Below, piece after piece: positions 1-41,564 of a stretch of 41,564 bases of DNA; positions within the stretch are counted from its first letter, which is position 1; each line of letters begins with the position of its first letter. The notes beneath the pieces were generated by a model, which saw only the letters and a program-made list of their open reading frames with translations, did not search any database and was not told where the DNA came from. Source of the DNA: a virus; IMG/VR virus record IMGVR_UViG_3300045988_083850; one strand, 5' to 3'. The position numbers and the translations under genes are program-made.

Positions 1-128
1 ATTGGACTTCTACCGAGTCCAGTGCTACCGACGCATGGAATCTGAACCTCTACGGCGGTACGACCGGTTGGACCACTAAGGCCAGCAACGCGGGCAGAGT
101 TAGGGCAGTGTCAGCATTTATTGTTTAA
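1..128 (+). CDS. 3' end of DGR target protein 1 (continuation of 40858..41564 across the circular junction); variable C-type-lectin/DUF1566-like C-terminus
   Basis: Reading frame runs from 40858 through the 55-nt end overlap. Translation ends ...WYWTSTESSATDAWNLNLYGGTTGWTTKASNAGRVRAVSAFIV, with TAA at 126-128. Confidence 0.9.
   Translation, partial: WTSTESSATDAWNLNLYGGTTGWTTKASNAGRVRAVSAFIV
12..116 (+). repeat. DGR variable repeat VR1
   Basis: 105 nt aligning to TR 683-790. Hand alignment gives 12 substitutions, all at TR adenines, plus one 3-nt gap. The last 21 nt (agagttagggcagtgtcagca) are identical to TR. Confidence 0.93.
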
Positions 129-203: not shown

Positions 204-620
204 ATGGCGGTAAAATTAGTTTCAAGTACAAAGATTTATTTAGATGCACGCAAGTTGTTAGACATCATTTTGGATATAGTACCCAATTTCCCACGTGCCT
301 ACAAATTCACCATCGGGGCAAAGCTGCAAGAAATTGGCGTTAATCTGATGCAGGAGATAGCGGCGGCGTACATCAATAAGGACAAAGCCGAGACAGTAAA
401 GCACCTAACCGAGTTTCAGGCAGAGTTTGAGACAATGAAAACGCTAATGAGAATTGCCGGAGAAAGGGAGTGGATAAAAGGCAGAGGAAAGTTTGCAAAT
501 ATTATCGAGTTAATGGACGAAATAGGTAAACAATCGTCAGCGTGGAAAAACAAAGTAGTTAATACACTTTGTAGCCAGAATCGGAATGTTACGACAGACC
601 GAGAGCGCAGTTTTCCGTAA
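204..620 (+). CDS. avd: DGR accessory variability determinant (Avd-like helical bundle protein)
   Basis: 138-aa helix-rich ORF in the canonical avd position, between the target gene and TR/RT. Family assigned by position and general sequence character only. Confidence 0.75.
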   Translation: MAVKLVSSTKIYLDARKLLDIILDIVPNFPRAYKFTIGAKLQEIGVNLMQEIAAAYINKDKAETVKHLTEFQAEFETMKTLMRIAGEREWIKGRGKFANIIELMDEIGKQSSAWKNKVVNTLCSQNRNVTTDRERSFP

Positions 621-831: not shown

Positions 832-2016
832 ATGGTAACGACAGAGTGGCTTTTAGATGCTTACTTTGATTGCCGTCATAGCAAAAGACGAACAGCAAGT
901 GCAGTAGTTTACGAAATGGACTACGAAAGCCGTTTGATTGCTTTGCGTGATAGAATCAATAACCGAACGTATCAACCGGGTAAGTCTATTTGCTTTGTCG
1001 TAACACGCCCAAGATACAGAGAGGTATTTGCAGCATCCTTTGAGGATAGAATCGTACACCACTACATAGCTTTGCGCCTAACGCCACTATTTGAGGAAAT
1101 ATTTAGCGAGCGTACATTTAATTGTAGGAAAGGCAAAGGGCAGCTTTATGGTATTAATACACTGAAAGAAGATATAAGGCAGTGCAGCAATAATTATACG
1201 GAAGATTGCCACATTATGAAACTTGACTTAAAAGGTTTCTTTATGAGCATCGACAAAAAGTTATTGTCTGAAATGGTAGATCGTTTTATAGTCAGGTACT
1301 ACAAGGGCGAAGACATAGACGATTTGCGCTACCTTTGCCGTGTCGTTATTTTACACAGCCCGGAAAAGAATTGTGAACGGCACAGCCCTTTGAGCTATTG
1401 GGAGAAGTTGGATAAGAACAAATCACTATTTACAAATGGTGAGGGTAAGGGCGTAGCCATCGGCAACCTGTTTGCTCAGATATTCGCAAACTTCTTACTT
1501 AATACGCTTGATTGGTTTATCGAAAATGAGGGTATAGAACATCATGGCAGGTATGTGGACGATTTCTATTGCATCCATAATGACAAAGAAAAGTTATTGG
1601 CGTTAATGCCTAAGATACGTGAGCTATTAGCCAAGTTAGGTTTACGACTGAATGAGAAGAAGTTTTATTTGCAACATTACAGCAAGGGCGTAGAGTTCAC
1701 CGGGTCAATAGTCAAACCCGGACGTGTCTATACCTGTAATCGCACGATAACAAACTTTATTGCAGCAGTCAGAAGACTAAACAAGGCAAACAACGAGCGG
1801 CAGGTATTACACGCAGTATGTAGCATCAACTCATATTTAGGTTTGCTACGGCATACCAATGAATATGCTATGCGCCGTAAAGTGCTTAACATGATTGAGT
1901 CACATATATTTAAAGAATATGTGTATATCAAAGGGCACTACGAGGTATTGGCAATTAAGAATAAACATAAATTGAGGTATCAAACAATGCAAAGAATTAG
2001 AAATGGCGACTACTGA
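832..2016 (+). CDS. DGR reverse transcriptase
   Basis: 394 aa with the catalytic box GRYVDDFYCIH and a DGR-type motif 4, IGNLFAQIFAN. It lies 41 nt downstream of TR. Confidence 0.93.
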   Translation: MVTTEWLLDAYFDCRHSKRRTASAVVYEMDYESRLIALRDRINNRTYQPGKSICFVVTRPRYREVFAASFEDRIVHHYIALRLTPLFEEIFSERTFNCRKGKGQLYGINTLKEDIRQCSNNYTEDCHIMKLDLKGFFMSIDKKLLSEMVDRFIVRYYKGEDIDDLRYLCRVVILHSPEKNCERHSPLSYWEKLDKNKSLFTNGEGKGVAIGNLFAQIFANFLLNTLDWFIENEGIEHHGRYVDDFYCIHNDKEKLLALMPKIRELLAKLGLRLNEKKFYLQHYSKGVEFTGSIVKPGRVYTCNRTITNFIAAVRRLNKANNERQVLHAVCSINSYLGLLRHTNEYAMRRKVLNMIESHIFKEYVYIKGHYEVLAIKNKHKLRYQTMQRIRNGDY

Positions 2017-6336: not shown

Positions 6337-6496
6337 CACTCGAAATAAGTAAGTAACTAACCTTACGAGTACAAGAAAGGCTGTCGGACATTTAGCCCAA
6401 CATACCATAAACCCAACTGCAAATATACGGCAGTTTTTCTTTTTCTCCAAAGGTATAAGTAACTAAGTAAGTAACTTTAATAAAATTTATACTTTT

Positions 6497-7155: not shown

Positions 7156-7176
7156 CATCATTAATCATATACAAAG

Positions 7177-7833
7177 ATGAAAACAGATTTTAATATTAAC
7201 GTACAGGTCAATTTGGGTGTAACACCCGAAATCGTGGCTTTGGTAAATGCCATTTTGTGCCACCGACCAACAGTTGCGCCGACCGCCGAGGAAGCACTCG
7301 ACGGAAACGGACAAGTAGATAACAAGCCAGAGGACACCACCCAGGCACAGCCTCAACAGCCTACTAACAAGCGAGGCAGAAAGAAGAAAGAGGACGCAGC
7401 CGCCGACAAGCCGGAGCCTACCAAGGAGCCAGCCGGAGACGAACAGCAGGAGGCAGCAGCCAACGAAGCCGATGCCAACGGTGAGCAGGTAGCCGAGCAG
7501 GAAGAAGCCAAAGCCGAGGAAGCCGCCCCACAGAATGAGGGCCAGGCCAAAGCAGAGGCAGAGCAGAAGCCATTAACCGCCGAAGACGTTAGGGCAGCTA
7601 TGCACAAGACACGCCAACGTATCGAGGGTGAAGACTACAAGGAGAACACCAACGGCGATCTATACAAGAAGTACCATAAGCCATTAACGGCACAGTTCAA
7701 GAACATAGCCGCTTTGTTGGGTGCTGAAAAACCGAGTGCTTTGCCACCTGATAAGATTGCAAATTTCATTGAGCAGTGCAACGGTTTGCAGATAATGGAA
7801 GATGGCACGATCGGTTCAAATTGCCCATTTTAG
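7177..7833 (+). CDS. hypothetical protein with acidic E/A/Q-rich low-complexity centre
   Basis: 218-aa ORF preceded by ATATACAAagATG. The central region is low-complexity (EQQEAAANEADANGEQVAEQEEAKAEEAAPQNEGQAKAEAEQK) and the C-terminus looks globular. Confidence 0.5.
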   Translation: MKTDFNINVQVNLGVTPEIVALVNAILCHRPTVAPTAEEALDGNGQVDNKPEDTTQAQPQQPTNKRGRKKKEDAAADKPEPTKEPAGDEQQEAAANEADANGEQVAEQEEAKAEEAAPQNEGQAKAEAEQKPLTAEDVRAAMHKTRQRIEGEDYKENTNGDLYKKYHKPLTAQFKNIAALLGAEKPSALPPDKIANFIEQCNGLQIMEDGTIGSNCPF

Positions 7834-7858
7834 TAACAACATTTAATCATATACAATT

Positions 7859-9007
7859 ATGGCAGGTAAACACGCTTTATTATCACCAAGTGCGGCGCAT
7901 CGTTGGATGAATTGTACCGCCGCCCCACTTCTGGAAAAAGACGTGGAGGATAAGGGCAGCACCTTTGCAGAGGAGGGAACGTTAGCCCACGCCTATTGCG
8001 CCAAGAAACTGAAAGAGTTTTTGGGTTTGTCGGTGGATGAGGAAAAAGCCGAGATAGTGCAGTTAGACGAGCAGTACCACAGTGGCGAAATGGACGAGTA
8101 CACCGATACGTACAAGACTATCGTACTGGAAAAGTTCAACGCCGCCCGAGCTAAGACCAAGGACGCACAATTGTTGGTTGAGGTCAAGTTAGATTTTAGT
8201 CACTATGTGCCTGATGCTTTCGGTACGTCGGACGCTATCATTATTGCCGATGGCGTGATGGAGGTTATCGACTTTAAGTATGGCAAGGGCGTAAAGGTGT
8301 CAGCCGTGGAAAATCCACAAATGATGATTTACGCTTTGGGCGCATGGGATTTATTTAACTTTGAGTACGACATACGTAAGGTACGCATGACTATCGTACA
8401 ACCACGTATTGATAATCTTTCAGAGTTCGAGTTAGATGCCGCCGACCTCATTAATTGGGCAGTCGATGAGCTGCAACCAAAAGCCAACGAAGCCTATGCC
8501 GGAGGTAAGCAAAAGCCGGGCAATTGGTGTCAGTTCTGCAAGGTTAAGGCCAACTGCAAAGCCCTATCGTCTATGTGCATCGAAGCACAGCAAGCCAACC
8601 CCGACCCACGTAAGATTAGCAAGGAAGTAATGGAAAGCACTATACTACCTTTGCTTTCAACGTTCAAAACGTGGCTAACTGGAGTTGAGGAGTACAGTTT
8701 GGAACAGGCGTTAAATGGTGTACAGTACCAAGGTTTCAAAATCGTTGAGGGGCGCAGTATCCGCAAGATAACAAACCCAACCGCCGTTATGGAACTTTTA
8801 GGCAAAGAGGGTTTTGCTAAAGAATCCTACATTAAGCCTACCGAGCTACGAAGTATTACCGATTTGGAGAAGCTCATTGGTAAGAAACGCTTTGGTGCAA
8901 TTTGCGCCGAGTACATCAACAAGCCACAAGGCAAACCAACGTTAGTGCCTGAATCAGATAAACGCCCGGCGTTTAATCAGGCGGCAGACGACTTTAAAGA
9001 CATTTAA
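7859..9007 (+). CDS. PD-(D/E)XK / Cas4-like exonuclease (DUF2800-like)
   Basis: N-terminus HALLSPSAAHRWMNCTAAP, a D..D/E-x-K-like core (SDAIIIADGVMEVIDFKYGKG) and a C-terminal cysteine cluster WCQFCKVKANC. It sits in the nuclease-SSB-PolA gene order. Confidence 0.65.
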   Translation: MAGKHALLSPSAAHRWMNCTAAPLLEKDVEDKGSTFAEEGTLAHAYCAKKLKEFLGLSVDEEKAEIVQLDEQYHSGEMDEYTDTYKTIVLEKFNAARAKTKDAQLLVEVKLDFSHYVPDAFGTSDAIIIADGVMEVIDFKYGKGVKVSAVENPQMMIYALGAWDLFNFEYDIRKVRMTIVQPRIDNLSEFELDAADLINWAVDELQPKANEAYAGGKQKPGNWCQFCKVKANCKALSSMCIEAQQANPDPRKISKEVMESTILPLLSTFKTWLTGVEEYSLEQALNGVQYQGFKIVEGRSIRKITNPTAVMELLGKEGFAKESYIKPTELRSITDLEKLIGKKRFGAICAEYINKPQGKPTLVPESDKRPAFNQAADDFKDI

Positions 9008-9033
9008 GTTTAACATTTTAAATATATACAATT

Positions 9034-9597
9034 ATGATAGACCCTAAAGTAGTTAATGACACTAAGGTAATCTTTGGCCCATGCCGCCTTAGTTACACCC
9101 ACGTTTTCGAGAAGTACAGCCCAGACGGTGACGGAGAGGGCAAGTTTATGACTAGCGTTTTGATCCCGAAGTCTGAAAAGAAGACTATCGAAGCAATCAA
9201 AAAGGCAATCGAGGCAGCTAAGAAAGCCGCTATCGTAGCCAAGTGGGGAGGCAAAGAGCCTAAAAAACTTGATTTGGCTTTGCGTGATGGCGACGAAAAG
9301 GACGATGAGGTTTACGAAGACCACTTCTATTTGAATGCCAAGAACAACACACGCCCGGGCGTGGTAGATCGCAAGAAAGTGCCTATCGTGGACGAGGAAG
9401 AAGTTTACAGCGGCGTTTGGGCGATTGTGTCGGTAACTTTCTATGGCTACGACGTAAGCGGTAACAAGGGCGTAGCGTGCGGCCTCAACAACATTATGAA
9501 GTTCAAGGACGACGACCATTTGGGCGGCAGAGTATCAGCCGAAAGCGACTTTGGCGATTTGGACGGCATCGACGATGAGGACGACGACGATTTGTAA
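9034..9597 (+). CDS. phage single-stranded DNA-binding protein (DUF2815-like)
   Basis: Lies between the nuclease and the polymerase. The acidic C-terminal tail DLDGIDDEDDDDL is typical of SSBs. Also carries the motif FYGYDVSGNKGVACGLNNIM. Confidence 0.6.
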   Translation: MIDPKVVNDTKVIFGPCRLSYTHVFEKYSPDGDGEGKFMTSVLIPKSEKKTIEAIKKAIEAAKKAAIVAKWGGKEPKKLDLALRDGDEKDDEVYEDHFYLNAKNNTRPGVVDRKKVPIVDEEEVYSGVWAIVSVTFYGYDVSGNKGVACGLNNIMKFKDDDHLGGRVSAESDFGDLDGIDDEDDDDL

Positions 9598-9686: not shown

Positions 9687-11660
9687 ATGAAAGAATTAGG
9701 CATAGACATCGAAACATATAGTAGCAACGACCTAACCGAGTGTGGCGTTTACAAGTACGTGGAAGCCGAAGACTTTACCATATTGCTTTTTGGGTACAGT
9801 GTGGATGGTGGTCCGGCTAAATGTGTGGACTTTGCAAGCAGCGAAACTTTGCCGCCGGACATCAAAGCAGCATTAACCGACCCCGAGGTAATAAAGACCG
9901 CTTTCAATGCAGCTTTTGAGCGTATTTGTATCGGCGTGTATTTAGGCATCAAAGGGCGATTAGACCCGAGACAATGGCGGTGTACGATGGTAAGAGCCGC
10001 CCGAATGGGTTTGCCGCTTTCGTTGGCTCAATGTGGTGAGGTGCTTAAACTGGAAGACAGAAAGATGACAGAGGGTAAAGCCCTGATAAGATACTTTAGT
10101 GTTCCAAACAAGCAAACCAAACAGGGCATAACAAAGATGATCCGACACAAGCCGAGCGATGCGCCCGAAAAATGGGCAACGTTCAAAACCTACAATATCC
10201 GAGACGTGGACGTGGAGCAAGCCATCTTAAAAAAGGTCAGAAGATTGGAAGCACCAGAGTTTGACGAAGATTTGTACGTAGCCGATCAGCACATTAACGA
10301 CCGTGGCGTGATGATAGACCAAGTATTGGTAAACAATGCCGCCCGATTTGATGAGCTATACAAAGATGAGCTATTTGCAGAAGCCCGAAAACTTACAGGC
10401 ATGAGTAACCCGAACAGCCCCGGACAGATTAAGCAATACATATCCGAGAACACCGGGTTTACTATTGATAGCCTCAACAAAAAGAATTTGGACGACTACG
10501 AGGTACAGTTTAAGTATTGGCCCAAGGTGCAGAAAGTTTTGGCTTTGCGTAGGGAAATGGGTAAGACTTCTAACAAGAAGTACACAACTATGCAAAAATG
10601 TGTCTGCAAGGATAGCCGAGTACATGGTTTGTTGCAGTTTTGCGGTGCAGCACGTACAGGCAGATGGGCAGGACGTTTGGTGCAGTTGCAGAACCTACCA
10701 CAAAACCATCTGGAAAGTCTAGATGATGCACGCTATTTGGTTAAGCAGGGTGATTTGGAAGAGTTTGAAATGAACTACGGAAACGTTACCCAAGTACTTA
10801 GCGAGTTGATACGTACCGCTTTCATAGCCAAGCCCGGTTGCACGTTCCACGTATGCGACTTTTCAGCGATCGAGGCACGTGTGATAGCATGGATAGCCGG
10901 GGAAACATGGGTATTGGACGCTTTCAGGGCAGGGCACGACATCTATTGTGAGACTGCAAGCAAGATGTTTGGTGTACCAGTGCAAAAGCACGGCCCCAAC
11001 GGAGATTTGAGACCGAAAGGCAAAGTAGCCGTTTTAGGTTTGGGTTACGGCGGCGGCGTATCGGCATTGGAAGCGATGGGCGGTAAGAAGTTAGGTTTAA
11101 CAGAATCCGAGGAAAAAGACATCGTAAACAAGTGGCGAGACAGTAACCCACATATCGTTAAGTTGTGGCGTACCGTTGAGAAAGCGGCTATCATAGCCAT
11201 TAAGACAGGAAAAAGCGTGCAGATACAACGAGGCATTATTATTAGTTATCGTTGGGGTATGTTGCTAATTACCCTACCAAGTGGCAGGACTATTTGTTAC
11301 CCACGTACAGAGGTTGGAATCGAGACAAACGACGGTTGGCGAGGCGACCACGAAATTATCGAATATGAGGGTTTGAACCAAAAAACGAAGAAGTGGGGAA
11401 AATTGAGAACCTACGGCGGTAAGCTAACCGAGAACATCGTACAGGCTACGGCACGTGACATATTGGGTTGTGTGATACTTAGAGCCGAGCAACGAGGGTT
11501 AAACGTAGTTTTCCATATACACGATGAGATCATCGTTGAGGCTACGAAAGACCAGACGTTACCGATGGTTGAGGCTTTGTTTAGTGAGCCTATACCGTGG
11601 TGCAAAGATCTGCCGCTCAAAGGTGCAGGGTACACCACCCCATATTATTTAAAAGATTAA
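9687..11660 (+). CDS. family A DNA polymerase with 3'-5' exonuclease domain
   Basis: Exo I motif LGIDIETYS, Pol motif A HVCDFSAIEARVIAW, motif B KGKVAVLGLGYGGG, motif C FHIHDEIIVE. Confidence 0.88.
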   Translation: MKELGIDIETYSSNDLTECGVYKYVEAEDFTILLFGYSVDGGPAKCVDFASSETLPPDIKAALTDPEVIKTAFNAAFERICIGVYLGIKGRLDPRQWRCTMVRAARMGLPLSLAQCGEVLKLEDRKMTEGKALIRYFSVPNKQTKQGITKMIRHKPSDAPEKWATFKTYNIRDVDVEQAILKKVRRLEAPEFDEDLYVADQHINDRGVMIDQVLVNNAARFDELYKDELFAEARKLTGMSNPNSPGQIKQYISENTGFTIDSLNKKNLDDYEVQFKYWPKVQKVLALRREMGKTSNKKYTTMQKCVCKDSRVHGLLQFCGAARTGRWAGRLVQLQNLPQNHLESLDDARYLVKQGDLEEFEMNYGNVTQVLSELIRTAFIAKPGCTFHVCDFSAIEARVIAWIAGETWVLDAFRAGHDIYCETASKMFGVPVQKHGPNGDLRPKGKVAVLGLGYGGGVSALEAMGGKKLGLTESEEKDIVNKWRDSNPHIVKLWRTVEKAAIIAIKTGKSVQIQRGIIISYRWGMLLITLPSGRTICYPRTEVGIETNDGWRGDHEIIEYEGLNQKTKKWGKLRTYGGKLTENIVQATARDILGCVILRAEQRGLNVVFHIHDEIIVEATKDQTLPMVEALFSEPIPWCKDLPLKGAGYTTPYYLKD

Positions 11661-11682
11661 ACAATATAAAGCATATACAAAA

Positions 11683-12393
11683 ATGGAGATACAGACAAGT
11701 AAGGCACTATCAGACGTGCAGCAATTCAGATACGAGTTATTACAATGGTGTGGCAACGTGGAAGATGCGGAGAAAGCCAATACCTTTGTGATGGGTAAGA
11801 ACGAAAAGCCAGTACAGGCGCAGTTACCAAAATCCGGCATAGAGGACGGCATCTATTTGGTACACGCCGACGGCAAAGCAACTTTGTTTGAACTGGAGTA
11901 CACCAAAGACGACAACATGAATAGCGAGGTAGCGGCTATCGGTTTGAAGATGGGTAGCTTTGGCATTAAGATAGCTTTGCACGATGAAGCTAACGGCGAT
12001 GGTATCACACTAACAACAAAGAGCAGTGGCGACGAAGAAAACGACCAAGCCTACTATATAGACAACTACGACGATGCAGTAGCAGACATGGACGGAGCAA
12101 GAAACACCAACCATTTACGTAGTATTCTAAATCCACAGATAAAGTTAGCCGATGATTGGTACATACCATCTTTAGGCGAGTTGTACCGTATCTTTATCAA
12201 CAAAAAGACTATCAATACAGCTTTGGAGTTTGCCAAGGGCGATAAACTGCAAGACCGTTGGTATTGGACTTCTACCGAGTACAGTGCTACCAACGCATGG
12301 ACTCTGTACCTCAGCGACGGTATTACGTACCGTTGGAACACTAAGGCCAGCGACACGGGCAGAGTTAGGGCAGTGTCAGCATTTATTTTTTAG
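11683..12393 (+). CDS. DGR target protein 2 (DUF1566/C-type-lectin-fold variable C-terminus) in the replication module
   Basis: The C-terminus DWYIPSLGELYRIF...RWYWTSTEYSATNAWTLYLSDGITYRWNTKASDTGRVRAVSAFIF is paralogous to target 1. It contains VR2. No signal peptide or lipobox. Confidence 0.9.
   Translation: MEIQTSKALSDVQQFRYELLQWCGNVEDAEKANTFVMGKNEKPVQAQLPKSGIEDGIYLVHADGKATLFELEYTKDDNMNSEVAAIGLKMGSFGIKIALHDEANGDGITLTTKSSGDEENDQAYYIDNYDDAVADMDGARNTNHLRSILNPQIKLADDWYIPSLGELYRIFINKKTINTALEFAKGDKLQDRWYWTSTEYSATNAWTLYLSDGITYRWNTKASDTGRVRAVSAFIF
12274..12381 (+). repeat. DGR variable repeat VR2
   Basis: 108 nt, the same length as TR. Hand alignment gives 11 substitutions, all at TR adenines, and the last 21 nt are identical to TR. 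Confidence 0.93.
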
Positions 12394-12421
12394 CCCTTAA
12401 TATTTTAGTTTTTAATCTTTA

Positions 12422-12439
12422 GCACGGCGAAAGCCGTGC
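12422..12439 (+). promoter_or_regulatory. post-VR2 stem-loop with GAAA loop
   Basis: gcacggc-gaaa-gccgtgc forms a 7-bp stem. Relative to the VR1 hairpin the t:a pair is replaced by c:g (a compensatory change). Confidence 0.75.
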
Positions 12440-12615: not shown

Positions 12616-13522
12616 ATGAACAGTACAGCGTATCAAAAGAGAAAGCCCCTTAACTTTGACAAAAAGTTGCAACATAGTATCGAGTTATTACAGAAGTCGG
12701 AAAAGTTGGCTTTGCGTTATTCAGATAAGGGGTTTTATTTGGCATTTAGTGGGGGCAAAGACAGCCAAAGCCTTTACCACGTGGCAGTATTAGCAGGTGT
12801 AAAGTTTGACGCTCATTATAGCCTCACGACTTTAGACCCACCAGAGTTAGTTATATTTATTCGTAACAAATATCCTGATGTTGCGATAGACAGACCAAAA
12901 CTAACCTTTGCCCAACTTTGCATTAAAAGTAAGGCTTTGCCAACTCGCTTAATGCGCTTTTGTTGCGCCGTACTGAAAGAAACCAAGGGAGCCGGGACAG
13001 TTACACTTACAGGCGTAAGGCGTGAGGAATCCGTACAGCGCAGCCACAGAAACGAAGCCGAGATTATCAGGGCAAAGAAGACAGACCGATTTAGTGGCAG
13101 CTTTGAGCAGTTAGACCAATTCACACGAAGCCAAGAAGTAGAGGGCGTGCAGTGTGTCAAGGGCAAAGACAAAATCGTAATAAACCCTATCATAGATTGG
13201 ACGAGAGAAGATGTTTGGTACTTTCTTAATGAAGTCGTTAAAGTAGAACATTGCGAGCTATACGATAAAGGTTGGCAGCGTATTGGGTGTTTGTTTTGCC
13301 CGATGGCAAGCCAAAAGGAAATTATAAAACAAGGGGGGGGCATATCCACGCTACAAGGCTTTAATATTACGTACCATACACCGACTAAGAGAAAACGGCT
13401 ATATGAATCGTTATACCGACCTAACAGACGAGGAGGTTTTTAATTGGTGGACTTCTAAGCAGGGCATTAAACATTGGTATTGTGAGCATAAATTACAGGG
13501 CAATTTGTTCGATGATTTATAA
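12616..13522 (+). CDS. PAPS reductase / PP-loop family protein, reading frame broken at a G8 tract (13333-13340)
   Basis: PP-loop LAFSGGKDSQS and a cysteine pair CLFCPMA. The track ORF ends at 13443, after 37 codons that look out of frame. Removing one G opens 60 codons to TAA 13520-13522 (AYPRYKALILRTIHRLRENGYMNRYTDLTDEEVFNWWTSKQGIKHWYCEHKLQGNLFDDL). Confidence 0.7.
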
Positions 13523-13557: not shown

Positions 13558-13815
13558 ATGGCAAAAGATTTCAAATACATAAGGTTTATGGTATTTAAGG
13601 CAAGCAACATTAAATACCTATTCGAGCAGTTGGACGATGAGCCACGACCATTTGAGTTAGTGGTACACCCACCAATAGGCAAAATCGGTGTGCGCCCGGT
13701 TACTATCAAGGCAAGCAACGAGGAAGATGCTAAGTACTTTAAGGGTATCTTAGATAAGTTATCGTATGAATCTTTAGAAAGATTGACGTATGGCACAGAT
13801 AAAGTTAAACAATGA
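13558..13815 (+). CDS. hypothetical protein
   Basis: 85-aa ORF whose 3' end overlaps the primase-helicase start by 26 nt. No motif recognised. Confidence 0.45.
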   Translation: MAKDFKYIRFMVFKASNIKYLFEQLDDEPRPFELVVHPPIGKIGVRPVTIKASNEEDAKYFKGILDKLSYESLERLTYGTDKVKQ

Positions 13816-16225
13816 TTTCCCGATCGACATAGCAACAGCCCATAGCCGTATGGCAAAGAAGTGGAAGAACAAAGCGACCACATGGGCGAAGTTGGTAGAG
13901 CGATGCAGCGAAACAAAGCGAACCACGGAAAGCGTAAGTGAGTACGCCAAGATGAGCAGGGAGGAACAAAGCAGCATCAAGGACGTAGGCGGTTTTGTCG
14001 GTGGCTACCTATCTGGAGGAACACGAAAGACCGCTAACGTGATGTGGCGAAGTATTGCCACACTTGATATTGACTACGGTACACCGGACCTTTGGGATGA
14101 GTTCACACTAAACTTTGACTTTGCGGCGATGCTTTACAGCACACACAAGCACACGCCGAAAAACCCACGCTTTCGTTTAGTGTTCCCATTGAGCCGTCAG
14201 GTACGCCCAGATGAGTACGAGCCACTTTGCAGGATGATAGCAAGCAAACTTAATATCGAGGTGTTCGACGATACCACCTATCAGTTAGCGAGATTGTTTT
14301 ATTATCCATCTACAAGCAGAGACGGCGAATATGTGTTTGAGTACCAAGACGGCAAGGCGTGCAACGTTGATGAGTTCCTAAAGCAGTACCACGACTATAA
14401 AGATGTGGCACTTTGGCCAGTATCGAGCCGAGAGGGTGACATCATCGTACACGAATTGAAAAAGGTAGGTGATCCGACCGAAAAGCCCGGCTTAATTGGT
14501 GCTTTTTGCCGTGCCTATTCAATAGAGGATGCAATCGACACGTTTCTACCTGATGTGTACGAGAAGACCGCCCACGATGGGCGATACACCTACATTAATG
14601 GTAGTGTGGCGGCAGGTTTGGTTTGCTATGAGGGTAAGTTTGCATACAGTAATCACGAAACAGACCCGGCGAGTAAGCAGCTTTGCAATGCTTTCGACCT
14701 TTGCCGAATACATCTATATGGTGTGCGGGATGAGGGTACGAAGATAACAGACAACACACGTTTGCCGTCGTACCTGAAAATGCAGGATTTCGTAGCCAAG
14801 GATAAAAAGGTAAGAATCTTACTTACTAAGGAGCGACAGGGCCAGGCCGATGATGATTTTGCCGACATCGAAGCAGAGGAAGCCGGAGACAGCGCAGTAT
14901 CTGAAAACGCCGACAAGTGGATGGCTGAATTAGACTTTGACAAGAAAGGCAGCATCAAATCAACGGCAAGCAATATTATTGCTATACTGGAAAACGACCC
15001 AAGGTTGAAAAACCATATATGGCAAAATCTGTTTAATGGGTTTAACTACATAACAGGTGGTTTGCCGTGGAATGCCGAGGCGACACAATGGGGCAATACT
15101 GATGATGCAAATCTAAGGATCTACTTAGATGAGAAGTACGGAGTAACTGGAAAGGACAAAATCAAAGATGCTTTGGTGGCGGTCGTTACACGTCACAGAG
15201 TACACCCGATACGTGATTACCTCAATAGTCTTACATGGGACGGCGTGCCACGCTTAGACCGCCTAATTATTGATTACGTAGGTGCAGAAGATAATGAGCT
15301 AAACAGAGCAATGACACGTAAGCACTTTACGGCGGCAGTAGCCCGAGTGATGAACCCAGGGTGCAAGTATGATTATTGCCTGATTATCGCCGGAGCCGAG
15401 GGTATCGGTAAATCGACGCTTTTTAATGTGATGGGCGGCGATTGGTTTAGTGATAGTTTGGTAACGATGGAGGGTACAAAGGGTATGGAGCAAGCCCGGA
15501 ACGGTTGGGTTATCGAGTTACCGGAGTTGGGCAGTATCAAGCGGTCAGACGTGGAGCAGGTGAAAGCCTACATAAGCCGTCAGAATGATATGTACCGCCC
15601 GGCATACGGCAGCGTGATGGAATCCCACCCGAGACAATGCGTTTTTTGTGGTACGACCAACGAAACATATTTTCTAAAGGGTGAGACCGGAAACCGCCGC
15701 TTTTGGGTAATGAGCGTAAACCCAGAACTACGTAAGCATGGAGACCCACGCCAAGCGATCGAGGCAGACCGTAACCAGTTATGGGCAGAAGCCGTGCAAC
15801 GCTACAAGGATGGCGAAAAGTTGTATCTTAGCGAGGCATTGGAGGCAGAAGCCCGAAAGCGTCAGGGCGAGTTTAACGATAATCAGGAAGACCCATTACC
15901 GGGAATGATACAGGCATACTTAGATATGAAGTTGCCGACCGACTGGAGTACATGGGACTTAAACCGCCGACGTGCCTACATTAAAAACCCCGACCCACTG
16001 GATGCAACAGGCACAGAAACACGTACCAAAGTTTGTGCCGCCGAATTTCTTAGCGAGGTTTTGGGGCGTGATGTTGGCAGCAAAGATTATAAGTATGAAG
16101 CCCGAAAGGTTAATAAAGTCTTAGACGAATTAGGATGGCAAAAACGCCCTACTTTGACGTTTCCGATATATGGTAAGCAAAGGGCATTTGTCAGACCAAT
16201 AGAGGAAGACGATAGCGACCTTTAA
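13790..16225 (+). CDS. primase-helicase (VirE-family P-loop NTPase with N-terminal primase-like region)
   Basis: 811 aa. Walker A IIAGAEGIGKSTLFN, Walker B-like GWVIELPELG, then CVFCGTTNE and RRFWV, as in VirE/D5-type replicative NTPases. Confidence 0.75.
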   Translation: MAQIKLNNDFPIDIATAHSRMAKKWKNKATTWAKLVERCSETKRTTESVSEYAKMSREEQSSIKDVGGFVGGYLSGGTRKTANVMWRSIATLDIDYGTPDLWDEFTLNFDFAAMLYSTHKHTPKNPRFRLVFPLSRQVRPDEYEPLCRMIASKLNIEVFDDTTYQLARLFYYPSTSRDGEYVFEYQDGKACNVDEFLKQYHDYKDVALWPVSSREGDIIVHELKKVGDPTEKPGLIGAFCRAYSIEDAIDTFLPDVYEKTAHDGRYTYINGSVAAGLVCYEGKFAYSNHETDPASKQLCNAFDLCRIHLYGVRDEGTKITDNTRLPSYLKMQDFVAKDKKVRILLTKERQGQADDDFADIEAEEAGDSAVSENADKWMAELDFDKKGSIKSTASNIIAILENDPRLKNHIWQNLFNGFNYITGGLPWNAEATQWGNTDDANLRIYLDEKYGVTGKDKIKDALVAVVTRHRVHPIRDYLNSLTWDGVPRLDRLIIDYVGAEDNELNRAMTRKHFTAAVARVMNPGCKYDYCLIIAGAEGIGKSTLFNVMGGDWFSDSLVTMEGTKGMEQARNGWVIELPELGSIKRSDVEQVKAYISRQNDMYRPAYGSVMESHPRQCVFCGTTNETYFLKGETGNRRFWVMSVNPELRKHGDPRQAIEADRNQLWAEAVQRYKDGEKLYLSEALEAEARKRQGEFNDNQEDPLPGMIQAYLDMKLPTDWSTWDLNRRRAYIKNPDPLDATGTETRTKVCAAEFLSEVLGRDVGSKDYKYEARKVNKVLDELGWQKRPTLTFPIYGKQRAFVRPIEEDDSDL

Positions 16226-28060: not shown

Positions 28061-31000
28061 ATGGCAGGTAAAAGTACTATATCCATAACGTTCAAATTGG
28101 ACGGAGACGGTAAGGGGTTTAAAGACCTTTCGCAAAATGCGGACGGCCTTAAACAAGCCATGACCGCCGCTATTGTGGAAGCCGACAAACTCAAATCGTC
28201 GTTGATCAACTGGAGCCAAGGCGTACAGGCTTTGGGCGCAGTATCTAACGCCGTCAGTCAGCTAAATGGTACTTTGCAAGATATTACCGCCGATAGTAGA
28301 GCCTTTGGCGCAGCTATGAAAGCCGCTAACACGATGGCAGGCAAGAACGCCGAGGGCTTTGCGAACCTCAAAGGACAGGTAGCCGATTTATCCAAGACTT
28401 TGCCTATTGCACGTGATGAACTCGCAAACGGCTTATATCAGGTAATCAGCAATGGTGTGCCCGAAGATAATTGGATAGATTACCTTAATAAGTCGGCTAA
28501 AGCATCCGTGGGCGGTATCGCTGATTTGGGCGAGACTGTAAAGGTAACATCTACTGTTATCAAAAACTATGGTTTGGCGTGGGATGCGGCCGAAAGCGTA
28601 CAGGACAAAATACAGCTCACGGCGAAAAATGGTGTAACATCCTTTGAACAGTTAGCCCAGGCCCTACCAAGAGTGACCGCCAACGCCTCAACATTGGGTG
28701 TAAGTGTCGATGAACTTTTGGCAAGTTTTGCAACGCTTACAGGTGTTAGCGGTAATACCAACGAGGTTGCAACCCAGATGGCGGCAATCTTTACCGCTTT
28801 GGTTAAGCCGTCAAGTGAGGCAACCGAAATGGCGGAAAAGATGGGTATTGAGTTCAATGCCGCATCTATCAAAGCCGCCGGAGGTTTGCGTAACTTTTTA
28901 ACCCAGTTGGACGCATCCGTTAAGGAATATGCCGCCGCTAATGGTGTATTGGAACAGGAAGTTTATGCAAAGTTGTTTGGTAGTGCCGAGAGTTTGCGAG
29001 CATTGACACCACTTACAAATCAGTTGGCCGAGAAGTTCAGCGAGAACGTGGACGCAATGGCAAATAGTGCCGGGACCATCAACGCCGCATACAACGAAAT
29101 GAGTAGTACAGGCGGCGCAACTACGCAAATGCTGAAAAACCAATTAGGCGCAATAACTGATGTGGTAGCCGGGTTTGTCGGCGGAGCGATGCCAATACTT
29201 AGTTTTACCTCACAGTTGGTTATAACCGCTATGAGTATTACAAGTTTGGTTAAGACCCTTAAAGCCCTGAATATCCAACAAGGCATTTTAACGTTACGCT
29301 CAAAGGCAGGTGGTGCAGCAATGCTTTTGTTTGGGCTTAATGCAAGCCGATCGGCAGCGTTTACACGTGTCTTTAGCGCAGCTTTGAAAAGTGGTGCATA
29401 TTCGGCAACCGCTTTCAAAATTGCCCTTAAAGGTTTGATGATTACCACGGTGGTAGGTGCTGCAATCGTAGCGGTAACATCTGTTATCGAATATTTCGTT
29501 AATAAGACCGATGAGGCTACCGACAAGACAAACGAGTTTAGCGAAGCCGAAGACGCTTACAAGAACGCAGCGGCAAATACTAAGGTTGAGTTAGACAAAG
29601 AGATTAAGGCTTTGGGCGACCTCATTACCGCTAAAAAGGACACCACCGACGCAGTAAACCACCTTAACGCCGTATATGGTGATTTGTTCGGGAGCCATAA
29701 GACAGCATCCGAGTGGTACGATACATTGACACGCAAAAGCCAGATATACGTTAAGCAAATTGGCTACGAGGCACAAGCAAAGGTGTTGGCTACAAAGTTG
29801 GCTGAAAAGCAAATCGAGTTGGAAGACAATTACGCTAAACGACGTGCCCTTTGGAAAGCCGGAGGCGCACAGAAGACCACCAAGCGGACAATAACCAACC
29901 GATCAACTGGAGGTGACAGCTACGAAGTTGTTACAACAGAAGACACCAAGGAGTACGCCGATTTAAAGGACAGCGCAAGGGGGCTGATACCGGAAATCCA
30001 AAGTTTGCAAAGACAATTGGGCATAGCCCAAAAGCACATGGCCGATTGTTCTAAGCAGATGGCGGCGGTTGATGCTAAGATGGGACATAACAACAAGACC
30101 GTTAAGGTTAGTGCAATGACCTATCAGCAGGTAGCGGACGCAATCGAAAAGACAGAAAAGAGACTTAAAAATACGACTGATAGCAAGGAAATAGCCAAGC
30201 TAAAGGCGTATAATGCGGAATTACACAACCGTAAAAAGTTATTAGATAAATCGTTGGGCTTTAATACGTTTAAGGGCGGCAGGAGAGGCAACAAGGGTGG
30301 AAGCACAAAAAACAAGCCAGTTGCAGACCCTAAGACCTATGAACAGTTAAGTACTAATATCGAGTACTACAAAAAGAAGCTCACCACGGCGAGCACCGCC
30401 GAGCAAGAAAAGATAAGGGCGAATATCCAAGCATGGGAGAAAAAGAAAGCGGCCATCGAGTTAGCCCAGAAAGCCGCCGAGCGACCAACCGAAATTAAGA
30501 CGCTGCAAGACGTTGAAAAGGAATTGGACTATTTGCAGACCCTACGAAAAACAGCCAACAAAAACGATTTGGCAAGTATCGACAAACTGATAAGCAAAAC
30601 CGAGTTGTTGGGCGCAGCTATGCAACGCCCGGCAAAGTTGGAGACCTTACAGGACATCGACAAGGAAATAGAGTACCAACAGAAGTTGAGGGCTACGGCA
30701 TCCAAGGAAGCTATAAGCGGAATTGATGCGGAAATCAATAAATTGGAAACTCTAAAGAACTATATCGAAAACGCCACGGTGATAGATATACCCGACAGCG
30801 CATTGAAGACGTATGAGCAGCTTAATATTAAGTTGGCATACTATAACGAGTTGTTGGAGAAAGCCACCGAGGAACAACGCCCAGAGATACAAAAGCACAT
30901 TAACGATATTGAGGGTATTAAGAAAGCATGGGACGATAGTTTAGCCGCTTTAAATAAGCCGGGAGACATTACCCAACTTGATACCATCGAGAAGTTAGAT

Positions 31001-32035
31001 GAAGCAGTAAGGTATTATCAGGAGCAGCAGAGCAAGCAGAGTGCCGACGAAATCCAAAACACGCAAAGAACGATCGACGCTTTGGAAGCGAAGCGAAAGG
31101 CGATGCAAAGAGGTATCGAAATACCATCAATGCAAAAAGAGATAGCCGAGATTAACGAACTTTCTAACCGAGAGTTTAAGATCAAGGTTAAGGGTATTGG
31201 CTTTGATGCACTAACCGATAAAATCCGGGAACTGCAAAAGCAGCTCAACGATACCAACAATCCGGTAACGGACGGACAGCGCAAGGACATCGAGGAAATG
31301 ATTAGCACCTACGAACAATGGCGCAAATCTTCTATTTCTTCTTTTGATACCGTAAAGTCTGGTTGGGACAACATCAAGGGTATTGGCGACAGCATCAACA
31401 GCATAACCGACGCTTTGGACGGCAACGGCAACGCATGGCAGAAAGTAACCGCTATCGTGGACGGCTTTATACAACTGTATGAGAGTATCAGCGCAATAGT
31501 AGGCATTATTGATATGCTAACGACCGCCTCAACCGCTCATGCCGCCGCAAAGACCGGAGAGGCAGCAGCCACAACCGCCACGGCAACCGCCCAGGGAGTT
31601 GAGACAGCAGCGCAGACGGCAGCAGCGGCGGCGATGGTTCCAGTTATTGCCGCTAACAAATTGGCGACCGCCTCATATATGGAGTTAGCCGCAGCAATGT
31701 TTTTTGCCGCCCATGCCTCAATACCATTTGTCGGCTTTGGCATAGCATCCGGTTTTGTGAGTGCAGCAACGGCGATGGTGGAAGCTATCGGAATAATGCC
31801 GTTTGCAAAAGGTGGTGTAGTGTCGGGGCCTACGTTGGCTTTAGTTGGCGAGTATGCCGGAGCAAGCAACAACCCGGAAGTTATTGCCCCACTTGATAAG
31901 CTACGTAGCATGATACAGCCGCAGGGCGGTATCGGTGGTAATGTTCGCTTTGAAATCGAGGGCAGAAAGTTAGTTGGGGTAATATCCAATACAACGAGAG
32001 TAGCCGCCAAGAGCGGCAGAAAGTCAAACTTTTAA
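28061..32035 (+). CDS. tail tape measure protein
   Basis: 1324 aa. The N-terminal region (LPIARDELANGLYQVISNGV...) resembles a TP901-type core, followed by hydrophobic segments, a long coiled coil and a Gly/Ala-rich hydrophobic C-terminal region. Confidence 0.9.
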   Translation: MAGKSTISITFKLDGDGKGFKDLSQNADGLKQAMTAAIVEADKLKSSLINWSQGVQALGAVSNAVSQLNGTLQDITADSRAFGAAMKAANTMAGKNAEGFANLKGQVADLSKTLPIARDELANGLYQVISNGVPEDNWIDYLNKSAKASVGGIADLGETVKVTSTVIKNYGLAWDAAESVQDKIQLTAKNGVTSFEQLAQALPRVTANASTLGVSVDELLASFATLTGVSGNTNEVATQMAAIFTALVKPSSEATEMAEKMGIEFNAASIKAAGGLRNFLTQLDASVKEYAAANGVLEQEVYAKLFGSAESLRALTPLTNQLAEKFSENVDAMANSAGTINAAYNEMSSTGGATTQMLKNQLGAITDVVAGFVGGAMPILSFTSQLVITAMSITSLVKTLKALNIQQGILTLRSKAGGAAMLLFGLNASRSAAFTRVFSAALKSGAYSATAFKIALKGLMITTVVGAAIVAVTSVIEYFVNKTDEATDKTNEFSEAEDAYKNAAANTKVELDKEIKALGDLITAKKDTTDAVNHLNAVYGDLFGSHKTASEWYDTLTRKSQIYVKQIGYEAQAKVLATKLAEKQIELEDNYAKRRALWKAGGAQKTTKRTITNRSTGGDSYEVVTTEDTKEYADLKDSARGLIPEIQSLQRQLGIAQKHMADCSKQMAAVDAKMGHNNKTVKVSAMTYQQVADAIEKTEKRLKNTTDSKEIAKLKAYNAELHNRKKLLDKSLGFNTFKGGRRGNKGGSTKNKPVADPKTYEQLSTNIEYYKKKLTTASTAEQEKIRANIQAWEKKKAAIELAQKAAERPTEIKTLQDVEKELDYLQTLRKTANKNDLASIDKLISKTELLGAAMQRPAKLETLQDIDKEIEYQQKLRATASKEAISGIDAEINKLETLKNYIENATVIDIPDSALKTYEQLNIKLAYYNELLEKATEEQRPEIQKHINDIEGIKKAWDDSLAALNKPGDITQLDTIEKLDEAVRYYQEQQSKQSADEIQNTQRTIDALEAKRKAMQRGIEIPSMQKEIAEINELSNREFKIKVKGIGFDALTDKIRELQKQLNDTNNPVTDGQRKDIEEMISTYEQWRKSSISSFDTVKSGWDNIKGIGDSINSITDALDGNGNAWQKVTAIVDGFIQLYESISAIVGIIDMLTTASTAHAAAKTGEAAATTATATAQGVETAAQTAAAAAMVPVIAANKLATASYMELAAAMFFAAHASIPFVGFGIASGFVSAATAMVEAIGIMPFAKGGVVSGPTLALVGEYAGASNNPEVIAPLDKLRSMIQPQGGIGGNVRFEIEGRKLVGVISNTTRVAAKSGRKSNF

Positions 32036-32047
32036 TTATTAGTTAAT

Positions 32048-36336: not shown

Positions 36337-36354
36337 TTTAAACATAGCGCAGTT

Positions 36355-37524
36355 ATGAAGACAAAAAGATTTGATTTCAACTTTAAGCCACTGCAAATTA
36401 ATGTTAGCATGGTGGTTGAGGGCGGTGTATCGGATAGTCAGAACTACGACGCAGACACCGACACATATACGCCCGATTACACCATAGACGCATCTAACTT
36501 AATAGTGCAGCCGAATATCGGCAGACTTGACAAAGACGAGGTTTTAACGCCGGGCTTGATTAATCAAGACCTCACTAATGTAGTCTGGTATGAGGTGAAC
36601 AAAGGAGCAGCCGACACCCTGATAGATAGCACTAACCCAGACTTTGAAGTAGTCAGCAAGGGACCAAAGGCAGGACGTATTAGGATTAAGAAGAACGCCA
36701 AGCCGCAGATACCTATGAATCTACGATTTGAAGCCGACTACAAAGACCCACGTACTAATCAGGTACACCACATCATCAAGCCGTACCAAGTGCAGTGCAA
36801 GAACGCCACAACATATACGCCACTTCTGGTATTGGATGCCGCCGCCCAAACTATCTACAACCCATTGAGCGACCCCGACACGCAGACGGTACACGCATCA
36901 TTGAGATTGGACGTTAATGAGTGCCCAGAGAATAAGCGTTTGTTTGTGTGGGAGGTAATGCGAGACGATGGAACATTTACCGCCGTAGGCAGCGACACCA
37001 CGTTAGACTATGACGTAGCGGTAGCAGCAGACGGAAACAGTTGTACCGTTAATCGTAGCCTCATGGGTACAGAACTTTATTTGCGATGCAGGGCAAAGTA
37101 TAGCCCGGACGGAAACCCGAGCAGCGTGACACTATCGGACAACGCCCCAACTAAGTTAGTGGCATTTATCCGTAGAATCCCAAAATTTGAGTACGACATC
37201 GGCGAACTACCTACCAACCTACCAAGTGGTTTGTTAGAGATTGCGCCAACGGCGAAGATTTGGAACACTAACGGCACGATCGACAATCCGGAACGTGAGT
37301 TATTGCCGCTTTGGTATGTTGCGACCAACGCACAGTCAGGAACGCTTAACTATTCGTTCATAGCACATGGAATGAAACCGACGCTTTCAACCAATAAGGT
37401 TAGTCAGACGTTAGGCGGTGTTTATGGTTTGGACGTTAAGGACGTTGGCCCTACGTGTGCATGGGAAGACAGCGACGGCGCAGTATTCGTTGATGCAGAC
37501 GATAACGTAATATTAATCAAATAA
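36355..37524 (+). CDS. hypothetical protein in tail-fibre module
   Basis: 389-aa ORF in the same orientation as its neighbours. No motif recognised. Confidence 0.45.
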   Translation: MKTKRFDFNFKPLQINVSMVVEGGVSDSQNYDADTDTYTPDYTIDASNLIVQPNIGRLDKDEVLTPGLINQDLTNVVWYEVNKGAADTLIDSTNPDFEVVSKGPKAGRIRIKKNAKPQIPMNLRFEADYKDPRTNQVHHIIKPYQVQCKNATTYTPLLVLDAAAQTIYNPLSDPDTQTVHASLRLDVNECPENKRLFVWEVMRDDGTFTAVGSDTTLDYDVAVAADGNSCTVNRSLMGTELYLRCRAKYSPDGNPSSVTLSDNAPTKLVAFIRRIPKFEYDIGELPTNLPSGLLEIAPTAKIWNTNGTIDNPERELLPLWYVATNAQSGTLNYSFIAHGMKPTLSTNKVSQTLGGVYGLDVKDVGPTCAWEDSDGAVFVDADDNVILIK

Positions 37525-37545
37525 CAATTTAATCAATATAAGATT

Positions 37546-38001: not shown

Positions 38002-38007
38002 GGAACT

Positions 38008-39060: not shown

Positions 39061-39064
39061 GCCT

Positions 39065-40857: not shown

Positions 40858-41564
40858 ATGGCAATAAAGAAAACAAAAAAGTTGAGTGGTCAGGCAACAG
40901 TAACCACCATCAACACAGATCAGAAAATCCCGGTAACGGACGCAAACGGAAAGGTTACGCTTATCTCATTGGCGAACCTCAAAACCGCTTTGTTGGCAGG
41001 TATGAACCTTAACGGCTTATACGATGGTATCTTTATCATGTATCACCGTAAGAGCGATGATTACCCACTCATGGTTAAGCCTCATAAGTGGACATCGTTA
41101 CAGAACAGCGGTGAAATTGCCGACGGCGTAGTGGTAGTTGAGGGCGGCAAAATCTTAGTCGTAGCCCCTACCGAATCAACTTCTAAGCTAACGTGGAGTA
41201 GCGCAGCTATCAGCGGAGGCGGTACGACAACAACCGATCGTGTAACAGCGATGAACGATTGGAACGGTAAGGCGAACACGGCGGCTACAATCAAGGCAAG
41301 CAAAGCCGATGCAATCACCAATACGGCGCAGTATGCACCGGGCTACTGCAATCTGTATAGCCGTGCAAACGCTAACGGCAAGGGTTTGACAGCAGGTAAA
41401 TGGTGGTTGCCATCGTTGGGCGAAATGTTTATGATTTACGCCAACATGACAAAAATCAATTATGCTTTGTCCCTGATTGCCGGAGCCACCCAGTTAGTTG
41501 AAAATTGGTATTGGACTTCTACCGAGTCCAGTGCTACCGACGCATGGAATCTGAACCTCTACGG
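40858..41564 (+). CDS. DGR target protein 1, 5' part (259 aa in total, continues at 56..128)
   Basis: ATG at 40858 with an open frame to the window end. Translation reads MAIKKTKKLSGQATVTT...GKWWLPSLGEMFMIYANMTKINYALSLIAGATQLVENWYWTSTE. It is the last gene of the tail-fibre module. It is absent from the ORF track because it has no in-window stop. Confidence 0.88.
   Translation, partial: MAIKKTKKLSGQATVTTINTDQKIPVTDANGKVTLISLANLKTALLAGMNLNGLYDGIFIMYHRKSDDYPLMVKPHKWTSLQNSGEIADGVVVVEGGKILVVAPTESTSKLTWSSAAISGGGTTTTDRVTAMNDWNGKANTAATIKASKADAITNTAQYAPGYCNLYSRANANGKGLTAGKWWLPSLGEMFMIYANMTKINYALSLIAGATQLVENWYWTSTESSATDAWNLNLY
41510..41564. repeat. 55-nt terminal overlap identical to 1-55 (circular closure of the contig)
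   Basis: attggacttctaccgagtccagtgctaccgacgcatggaatctgaacctctacgg is present at both ends. The gene frame is continuous across the junction. Confidence 0.85.

Follow-up and report, generated by a model that had tools for sequence, protein, structure and literature searches.

Diversity-generating retroelements (DGRs) of phages are assumed to serve tropism switching. We analysed a 41,564-nt stretch of viral DNA (IMG/VR record IMGVR_UViG_3300045988_083850), which is called the window below and to which all coordinates refer. The window carries one DGR with a template repeat (TR) and two target genes, each ending in a variable repeat (VR). Target 1 carries VR1 and is the last gene of the tail module. 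Target 2 carries VR2, lies in the replication module directly after the gene of a family A DNA polymerase (PolA) and is the subject of this work.

The closest described systems are the Bacteroides phages Bacuni F1, F2 and F4. Hedzet et al. (2021; PMC8143477) reported two DGR targets in the Bacuni phages, one of them distant, and annotated both as adhesion proteins. Wu et al. (2018; PMC5758913) listed many DGRs of prophages in which one target is next to the cassette and another is not. The survey of Roux et al. (2021) looked only near the reverse transcriptase (RT) and could not detect remote targets. For the DGR of phage BPP-1, homing was found to need a GC stem of 7–10 bp with a 4-nt GRNA loop 3' of the VR, at a flexible distance (PMC3240598).

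Full-length homologues of target 2 were identified by tblastn among isolated phages, namely in Bacuni F1, F2 and F4 (45–47% identity). The F1 homologue (locus tag Bacuni_F1_00026, QMS42043.1) was 45% identical over aa 7–235, is located after PolA and ends in a VR that differs from the TR of F1 by mismatches of the adenine type. The gene order of F1 resembles that of the window: tail genes, a DUF1566 target, bAvd, TR and RT, and further on DUF2800, DUF2815 and PolA, then a DUF1566 target, a DNA-modification gene and a VirE/VapE primase. The remote Bacuni target also begins with an N-terminal hairpin, as target 2 does. The two phages nevertheless belong to different lineages and have no nucleotide-level match. 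Only F1 has a small open reading frame (ORF) between PolA and the target; it has a methyltransferase where the window has a phosphoadenosine phosphosulfate (PAPS) reductase, and no Cys-rich ORF.

Full-length homology including the hairpin, and the place between PolA and VapE/VirE, identify target 2 at the sequence level as the orthologue of the distant Bacuni target. The architecture is not new, because it has been described in print for Bacuni F1, F2 and F4 (PMC8143477). The initial annotation of the window had allowed that the arrangement might be undescribed. This has to be withdrawn: the Bacuni orthologue is published, and non-adjacent prophage targets were catalogued earlier (PMC5758913).

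VR2 as a second homing site

VR2 was aligned to the TR over 108 nt without a gap. There were 11 mismatches, and all 11 were at TR adenines. The distance between VR2 and the TR was 11,591 nt (the initial annotation had given about 11 kb). The position of VR2 at the end of a 236-aa gene that starts 22 nt past the PolA stop at 11660 was likewise confirmed.

It is VR1, not VR2, that departs from the length of the TR (105 nt, a deletion of one codon). Single-codon InDels also occurred in VR1 of locus L060, in VR2 of locus L023 and within the Bacuni-like family. As plain adenine mutagenesis gives no codon InDels, RT slippage or imprecise 5' integration may act.

The homology to the TR stops right after AGAGTTAGGGCAGTGTCAGCA, a stretch of 21 nt common to TR, VR1 and VR2. 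By analogy with BPP-1 (PMC3240598), AGAGTTAGGGCAGTGTCAGCA is a putative counterpart of the initiation of mutagenic homing (IMH) site. A GC-rich hairpin with a GAAA loop follows 40 nt past VR2 (DNA fold −9.7 kcal/mol, z = −5.07). An equivalent hairpin was found after VR1 at 157–176, and a fold check of the TR flank gave no hairpin. The hairpin was kept after both VRs across ~110 related loci, and its stem showed compensatory variants among them: GCACGGC/GCCGTGC, GGTACGGC/GCCGTACC and GTTCCCGGC/GCCGGGAAC. As a candidate target-recognition hairpin or cruciform of the DGR it fits the requirement described for BPP-1, with a distance to VR2 slightly above the 4–34 bp range of the same study (PMC3240598). 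In a few contigs (among L001–L133), the 3' flanks were chimeric, with a VR1-type spacer and a VR2-type hairpin or the reverse. Given these chimeric flanks, the VR1 and VR2 sites appear to undergo recombination or gene conversion.

The number of relatives of target 2 was large (1647 at E ≤ 1e-3). The best 120 of them were full length, ~90% identical and 235–247 aa long. In 106 homologues, each of the 11 AAY codons showed an entropy of 2.2–3.2 bits and 9–14 residue types. Codons without a TR adenine were invariant or nearly so. VR2 is considered active because it is on these 11 AAY codons that more than 100 homologues vary.

For a direct comparison of both sites, 17 independent IMG/VR contigs carrying both targets and their own TR were used, and each VR was compared with its own TR. 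The mismatches were almost all at TR adenines in VR2 (265 of 275) as well as in VR1 (254 of 258), and the signal for VR2 greatly exceeds what chance would give. The initial annotation had tied the case for VR2 to adenine-site variation in populations, and this is where such variation was found. The TR itself was identical at 106–108 of 108 nt in the 15 paired contigs with a full-length TR alignment. The substitution spectra were the same in both VRs: adenine was kept at a fraction of 0.61–0.62, and changed to G at 0.21, to T at 0.12 and to C at 0.05. Residue usage at the AAY codons was also the same in VR1 and VR2, where Gly, Tyr, Asn and Ser dominated. Since the residue pattern is identical, VR1 and VR2 have either their selection or their event structure in common. 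Compared with the expectation from independent per-site substitution, Gly (~22%) and Tyr (~20%) were well above and Asn (~15%) was well below at the AAY codons.

Judged from these natural variants, VR2 is as active as VR1, and both are equally diversified in natural populations. The initial annotation had described VR2 as a TR-length repeat (108 nt) with its own hairpin and as an apparently functional homing site. The ungapped alignment, the hairpin (z = −5.1) and the population variation all agree with this description. They support VR2 as a second, functional site for homing by the same DGR, located within the replication module and in a protein without a signal sequence.

The target-2 protein and its genomic setting

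Too shallow an alignment (41 sequences) gave an AlphaFold2 (AF2) model of target 2 that could not be used (predicted local distance difference test, pLDDT, 45.8). The model used here was built from 60 diverse members of the family and reached a pLDDT of 90.6. It shows an N-terminal helical hairpin, a flexible linker and a C-type-lectin domain (Table 1). Most of the variable residues of VR2 were on or beside a predicted beta-hairpin (strands 204–209 and 215–220). In a Foldseek search, the lectin domain matched 4EPS (E 1.7e-5), the C-terminal domain of Lcl (8Q4E, E 6e-4) and snaclecs or C-type-lectin-like proteins. The match of the modelled fold to the Lcl C-terminal domain supports membership of target 2 in this superfamily, and 53 of the 60 family members matched the Lcl_C model at E ≤ 0.1. 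Viral models with the same fold (BFVD) were DUF1566 proteins of crAss-like phages, tail-fibre tips and virion proteins.

The profile alignment (hhalign) of target 2 (aa 50–236) with target 1 (aa 51–259) had a probability of 99.8%, and BLASTP aligned only 82 aa of the two proteins. As the profile alignment spans the whole lectin domain of ~185 aa, the targets are paralogous over this length, and they differ only in the N-terminal ~50 residues. The initial annotation had described the N-terminal ~170 aa as unrelated to target 1 and only the ~65-aa lectin-fold C-terminus as paralogous. Both statements were wrong. The supposed unrelated part was an artefact of reading by eye. Target 2 is acidic and target 1 is basic (isoelectric points of 4.7 and 9.4), and the same is seen in the N-terminal 50 residues (5.1 and 10.1). 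No hydrophobic N-terminal segment was present in target 2 (maximum KD12 of −0.04 in the first 40 residues), in line with the earlier statement that the protein has neither a signal peptide nor a lipobox.

The family defined by the N-terminal region was compact. It comprised 78 representatives at 50% clustering, nearly all of 215–250 aa and with the same architecture, and the helical hairpin was conserved in ~78 of the family representatives. The hairpin had no Pfam match and only weak matches to DUF2560 (E ~1e-3). The Pfam and phrog searches gave no structural-protein family for the N-terminal module of target 2. Giant proteins with InlB-B repeats were rejected as relatives of the N-terminus, because many short-motif matches of 3–8 bits had been summed to an artefact. 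A trimmed DUF3310 domain was also rejected as the origin of the hairpin: hhalign against the DUF3310 N-terminus gave a probability of 0.4%, and target 2 had no PF11753 match.

The placement of target 2 was conserved. In 33 of 34 IMG/VR loci, PolA was followed by an optional ORF of ~100 aa and then by target 2, after which came the Cys-rich ORF in most cases, a cargo gene that varies and finally VapE; the remaining locus (L016) stops inside target 2, and the other 33 extend far enough. The gene was still located after PolA in relatives with 40–64% identity in target 2 and 69–92% in PolA. In some more distant relatives (L040, L045 and L050), PolA was directly followed by VapE. Because the position is kept, target 2 is taken to be a long-standing resident of an accessory island in the replication module, and the comparison of loci supports a conserved rather than an accidental placement.

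The Cys-rich ORF and the PAPS-reductase gene follow target 2 as the initial annotation had stated. The PAPS-reductase slot is variable and holds a split C5 methyltransferase in L003 (7987–9284) and L035 (10930–11509). An example of the optional ~100-aa ORF between PolA and target 2 is located at 6469–6771 of L001. The cargo slot and the optional ORF form a DNA-modification or accessory island around target 2.

The genes starting at 7177, 7859, 9034 and 11683 (target 2) had exact matches to the start context ATATACAA-NN-ATG. With one mismatch allowed, seven matches were found in the window, and this number was reached in 0 of 100 shuffles; the start context that the initial annotation had assigned to target 2 and the three neighbouring genes is therefore real. 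A fuller form of the motif, (T)AA(T/A)(C)ATATACAA-NN-ATG, was seen at these four genes of the replication module (7167–7179, 7849–7861, 9024–9036 and 11673–11685), and a shifted form was seen at the start of the RT gene (825–834). None of the structural gene starts of the window had the ATATACAA motif. It was also absent from Bacuni F1, so the motif is lineage-specific. It could be a translation-initiation or regulatory signal. In a scan with the consensus TTTG...TAnnTTTG, promoters of the Bacteroidetes type clustered at the lysogeny switch. A scan for sigma-70 promoters and terminators gave background counts only and is uninformative for Bacteroidota.

The first 55 nt of the window are identical to positions 41510–41564. 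Owing to these identical ends, the genome is regarded as complete and as circular or terminally overlapping, with 41,509 bp. Target 1 and VR1 span the circular junction. The + strand carries almost all genes. The TR is flanked by the genes of bAvd and the RVT_1 domain on the same replicon, an amidase gene follows the RT, and a tyrosine integrase and an S24/HTH repressor are encoded on the minus strand. Beyond VapE, there are genes for an SNF2 helicase, TerL, portal and capsid proteins, and then long + strand ORFs (28061–40849), which are read as the tail module from their position and their synteny with Bacuni F1. The phage is a temperate siphovirus of Bacteroidota with a complete genome of ~41.5 kb and one DGR (bAvd, TR and RT).

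A megablast search of positions 1–25000 against INPHARED gave no match, so the phage is neither a sequenced isolate nor the Hankyphage. A scan of GTDB genomes with the N-terminus of target 2 gave no match either. Relatives found by a PolA scan were in metagenome-assembled genomes (MAGs) titled Bacteroidaceae, Prevotella or Prevotellaceae. The host is probably a member of the Prevotellaceae or Bacteroidaceae according to these titles, several of which are probably mis-binned.

Table 1. Coordinates of the features discussed in the text, with strand and evidence
Feature	Position	Strand	Evidence or remark
VR1, 105 nt, one codon shorter than TR, ends target 1; own hairpin 157–176	12..116	+	
bAvd accessory protein	204..620	+	PF22296 bAvd, E 2.4e-25
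TR, 40 adenines, 11 AAY codons	683..790	+	Repeat comparison with the VRs
DGR reverse transcriptase	832..2016	+	PF00078 (RVT_1), E 8e-20
DUF2800 exonuclease	7859–9007		Replication module
Enc34-type single-stranded DNA-binding protein (SSB)	9034–9597		Replication module
PolA, directly upstream of target 2	9687..11660	+	PF00476; phrog_17
ATATACAA-AA-ATG start context of target 2	11673..11685	+	Motif scan
Target-2 gene, 236-aa DGR variable protein without signal peptide	11683..12393	+	ORF; Lcl_C, E 4e-7; AF2
N-terminal helical hairpin, aa 11–37, module unlike that of target 1	11713..11793	+	AF2 helices 11–23 and 26–37
Flexible linker, aa 38–54, length and sequence vary in the family	11794..11844	+	pLDDT ~53
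C-type-lectin domain (DUF1566/Lcl_C, 4EPS-like), aa 55–236	11845..12390	+	Foldseek, hhalign
VR2, 108 nt, encodes aa 198–233	12274..12381	+	Ungapped alignment with TR
3' end of VR2 (AGAGTTAGGGCAGTGTCAGCA), putative IMH-like priming/integration boundary	12361..12381	+	Same 21 nt in TR, VR1 and VR2
GC-rich hairpin with 7-bp stem and GAAA loop, GCACGGC-GAAA-GCCGTGC, 40 nt past VR2	12422..12439	+	DNA fold
Cys-rich ORF, 49 aa	12464..12613	+	After target 2 in 33/36 close-relative loci (L001–L036)
PAPS-reductase (BrxP-like) cargo gene, variable slot	12616..13443	+	PF01507, E 2.6e-17; PADLOC BrxP, E 3e-15
VapE-type primase-helicase, closes the accessory island	13790..16225	+	PF05272, E 7e-77
Target-1 gene, 259 aa, last tail-module gene	40858..41564, across the circular junction to 128	+	Circularised translation; Lcl_C at aa 124–254

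The role of target 2

The DGR retrohomes adenine-mutagenised cDNA into two sites, VR1 in the tail-module gene and VR2 in the post-PolA gene. Both sites keep their cis signals, namely a 3' end identical to the TR and then a GC-rich GAAA hairpin ~40 nt downstream. For target 2 in this two-site DGR, we give about even chances to an accessory hypervariable adhesin, probably associated with the virion. It would be an accessory protein with a hypervariable ligand-binding surface, made from the transcript of the replication genes. Its helical hairpin would most likely tether it to a larger assembly, probably the virion, where it would act as a second adhesin for variable surface structures. The fold of the tail-fibre tips in BFVD and the paralogy to the tail-module target point toward such an adhesin. 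The short docking-type N-terminal module and the flexible linker, which are tether-like, point in the same direction.

The Bacuni phages bear on what such an adhesin would determine. Bacuni F1 and F2 infect the same host (B. uniformis MB18-33), and their GenBank sequences are 16 nt (11 residues) apart, all in the remote VR. Bacuni F1 and F4 have different hosts and identical remote VRs (GenBank); they differ in the cassette-proximal VR (PMC8143477). As the remote VR does not track the host, target 2 is not the primary determinant of tropism, at least on those few strains.

A number of observations weigh against an adhesin on the virion. Target 2 was never in the structural module of the relatives and starts 22 nt after PolA. 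Neither a tail-module location (relatives examined) nor a tail-attachment domain (Pfam, phrog and hhalign) was found for it. The ATATACAA start motif is common to target 2 and early replication genes, and no Bacteroidetes-type promoter of its own was detected in the consensus scan. The match to Pfam Lcl_C (PF07603, aa 153–231, E 4e-7) reached 30.7 bits and was below the gathering cutoff of 34.9. Members of the family were found in early or replication regions of four phage backgrounds. The BS-TP1 member (gp76) is among small early-type genes, including one for a Lar-like protein. The crAssE-Sib member has a poly(A) polymerase on one side and an AAA ATPase on the other, with NinG and a replication factor nearby. 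L146 holds a 177-aa copy without the hairpin, in an early region of lambda-like type with genes for a CI repressor, a pyrophosphatase, RusA and an O-like initiator. Moreover, in P0276 and P0313 the helical hairpin is replaced by a DUF3310 (SaV-like) N-terminus above the Pfam cutoff, on the same lectin body. Phage proteins that are made early and are cytotoxic are known to contain this domain (PMC8306868, PMC11373665). Position, motif and family context agree with a role outside the virion no less than with one on it.

Further details of these relatives were noted. A query of IMG/VR for the DUF3310-lectin fusion found only genes with DUF3310 alone. The hairpin-less copies in L146 (4012–4545) and L147 (5374–5907) have a C-terminus that resembles a diversified VR (…RAVSAF), and an inverted repeat comes after it. 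Right after gp76, the unrelated phage BS-TP1 has a Cys-rich, zinc-ribbon-like ORF (L056, 8737–9081). Although gp76 is near an RT, it was rejected as a DGR target, since a search of the locus gave no match to a TR and the BS-TP1 paper names gp27 as the target.

The company of early or replication genes that relatives keep in four phage backgrounds speaks somewhat for a non-structural, intracellular role, even if we consider it rather unlikely. Target 2 would then be an early or middle non-virion protein, produced along with the replication genes and remaining in the infected cell. Its DGR-diversified lectin surface would bind a competing element or a variable host factor such as a sensor or defence protein. 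The accessory island between PolA and the primase, of anti-restriction type, would include it. The location in the replication module is kept down to 40% protein identity. The gene start close behind PolA, the lack of an own promoter in the scan and the start motif of the exonuclease and SSB genes are consistent with such a role. So are the neighbouring slots with a BrxP-like PAPS reductase or a C5 methyltransferase, the BS-TP1, crAssE-Sib and lambda-like homologues among early, replication or restriction-alleviation genes and the DUF3310 fusions. The remote VR of Bacuni does not follow host range, a comparison which covers very few strains, and intracellular DGR targets have been reported in bacteria (PMC10907252, PMC7517822). 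However, none of the DGR targets of phages is known to act inside cells, and the fold of target 2 is the same as that of the tail-module paralogue and tail-fibre tips. With nearly all genes pointing the same way, little can be concluded on timing from where the gene lies. There was no match to an anti-defence family, and neither target 2 nor the Cys-rich ORF had a match in PADLOC, which holds no anti-defence families.

A role as a co-equal second receptor-binding protein at the tail tip, encoded away from the tail genes and serving alternative hosts or phase-variable surfaces, is improbable in our estimate. It has a precedent in Mtd of BPP-1, the lectin domain and the TR-encoded binding hairpin are the same as in target 1, and VR1 and VR2 are equally diversified; the adhesion annotation of both Bacuni targets by their authors (PMC8143477) also speaks for it. 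Set against this are the F1/F2 pair, which shares a host despite 11 residue changes, the F1/F4 pair, which has different hosts and an identical remote VR, an N-terminal module unrelated to that of target 1 and a gene outside the tail module in every relative examined. We see even less reason to regard target 2 as a passenger, that is, a duplicated copy which keeps the cis elements, is mutagenised only incidentally and has hardly any selected function or none. Two observations speak for a passenger: VR1 and VR2 have homologous 3' flanks that recombine, and the two VRs cannot be told apart by their substitution spectra or residue usage. However, the ORF was intact (235–247 aa) in all 120 homologues listed, the part outside the VR was conserved across the family to 40% identity at the same position, and the distinct N-terminal module was conserved too. 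The gene is also kept in the isolated, plaque-forming Bacuni phages.

The readings differ in what would follow from them. If target 2 is borne on the virion, as in the accessory adhesin that we favour, it would be a second adhesin with a ligand worth finding (a capsule variant, mucus or other). If it is non-structural, phage DGR biology would extend to intracellular conflict, and target 2 might, with a correspondingly small chance, be the first case of a phage DGR used beyond receptor recognition. Gut metagenomes contain this phage in abundance (>1600 clusters at 90% identity). Large DGR surveys confined to the vicinity of the RT miss the class of remote targets (Roux et al. 2021).

Comparison with described systems

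The DGR of BPP-1 with its target Mtd (Doulatov 2004; Guo 2011, PMC3240598) resembles target 2 in adenine mutagenesis, a C-terminal VR and a C-type-lectin fold. BPP-1 also has a GC-rich stem with a GAAA-type loop 3' of the VR, as is seen for VR2 (PMC3240598). The proteins are different in their build. Mtd is a trimeric tail-fibre tip of 381 aa with beta-prism and beta-sandwich domains, and its gene is beside the cassette. Target 2 has 236 aa and a helical-hairpin N-terminus, its gene follows PolA, and its DNA hairpin is 40 nt from the VR and not adjacent to it.

The best structural matches to the domain of target 2 were the type V pilin-tip C-type-lectin domain of BACOVA_04982 (4EPS) and Legionella Lcl (8Q4E), both related to PF07603. 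The 4EPS/Lcl domain group dominates the DGR variable proteins of Bacteroides, ~70% of which are prophage-encoded (bioRxiv 10.1101/2024.11.15.621889). However, 4EPS and Lcl are secreted, lipidated or collagen-fused surface adhesins, whereas target 2 is phage-encoded and without signal peptide or lipobox.

The 'target2' of the gut myoviruses nd4 and nd12 (Baykov 2023, PMC10743442) is also similar to target 2, with ~234–294 aa, one C-type-lectin domain and short flanking helices. As in the window, the VR forms a beta-hairpin at the surface, and a single TR is used for two targets that differ from each other (PMC10743442). The nd4/nd12 targets are of the DUF6273 type and are located inside the cassette. 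Their second target, tentaclin, has an N-terminal C-type-lectin domain followed by immunoglobulin domains, and owing to this different topology the tentaclins were rejected as members of the target-2 family.

The prophage DGRs of Wu et al. (2018) have a non-adjacent target in the same prophage, at ≤50 kb, which is served in trans by one TR and RT, as in the window (PMC5758913). The genome module and the role of these non-adjacent targets were left unanalysed in that survey (PMC5758913).

The window phage is a further case of the arrangement published for the related, cultivable Bacuni phages. Here and in these phages, two lectin proteins that are paralogues are diversified to the same extent by one DGR. 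The remaining interest is in the role of a DGR target that consistently accompanies replication genes, a role which is now easily testable.

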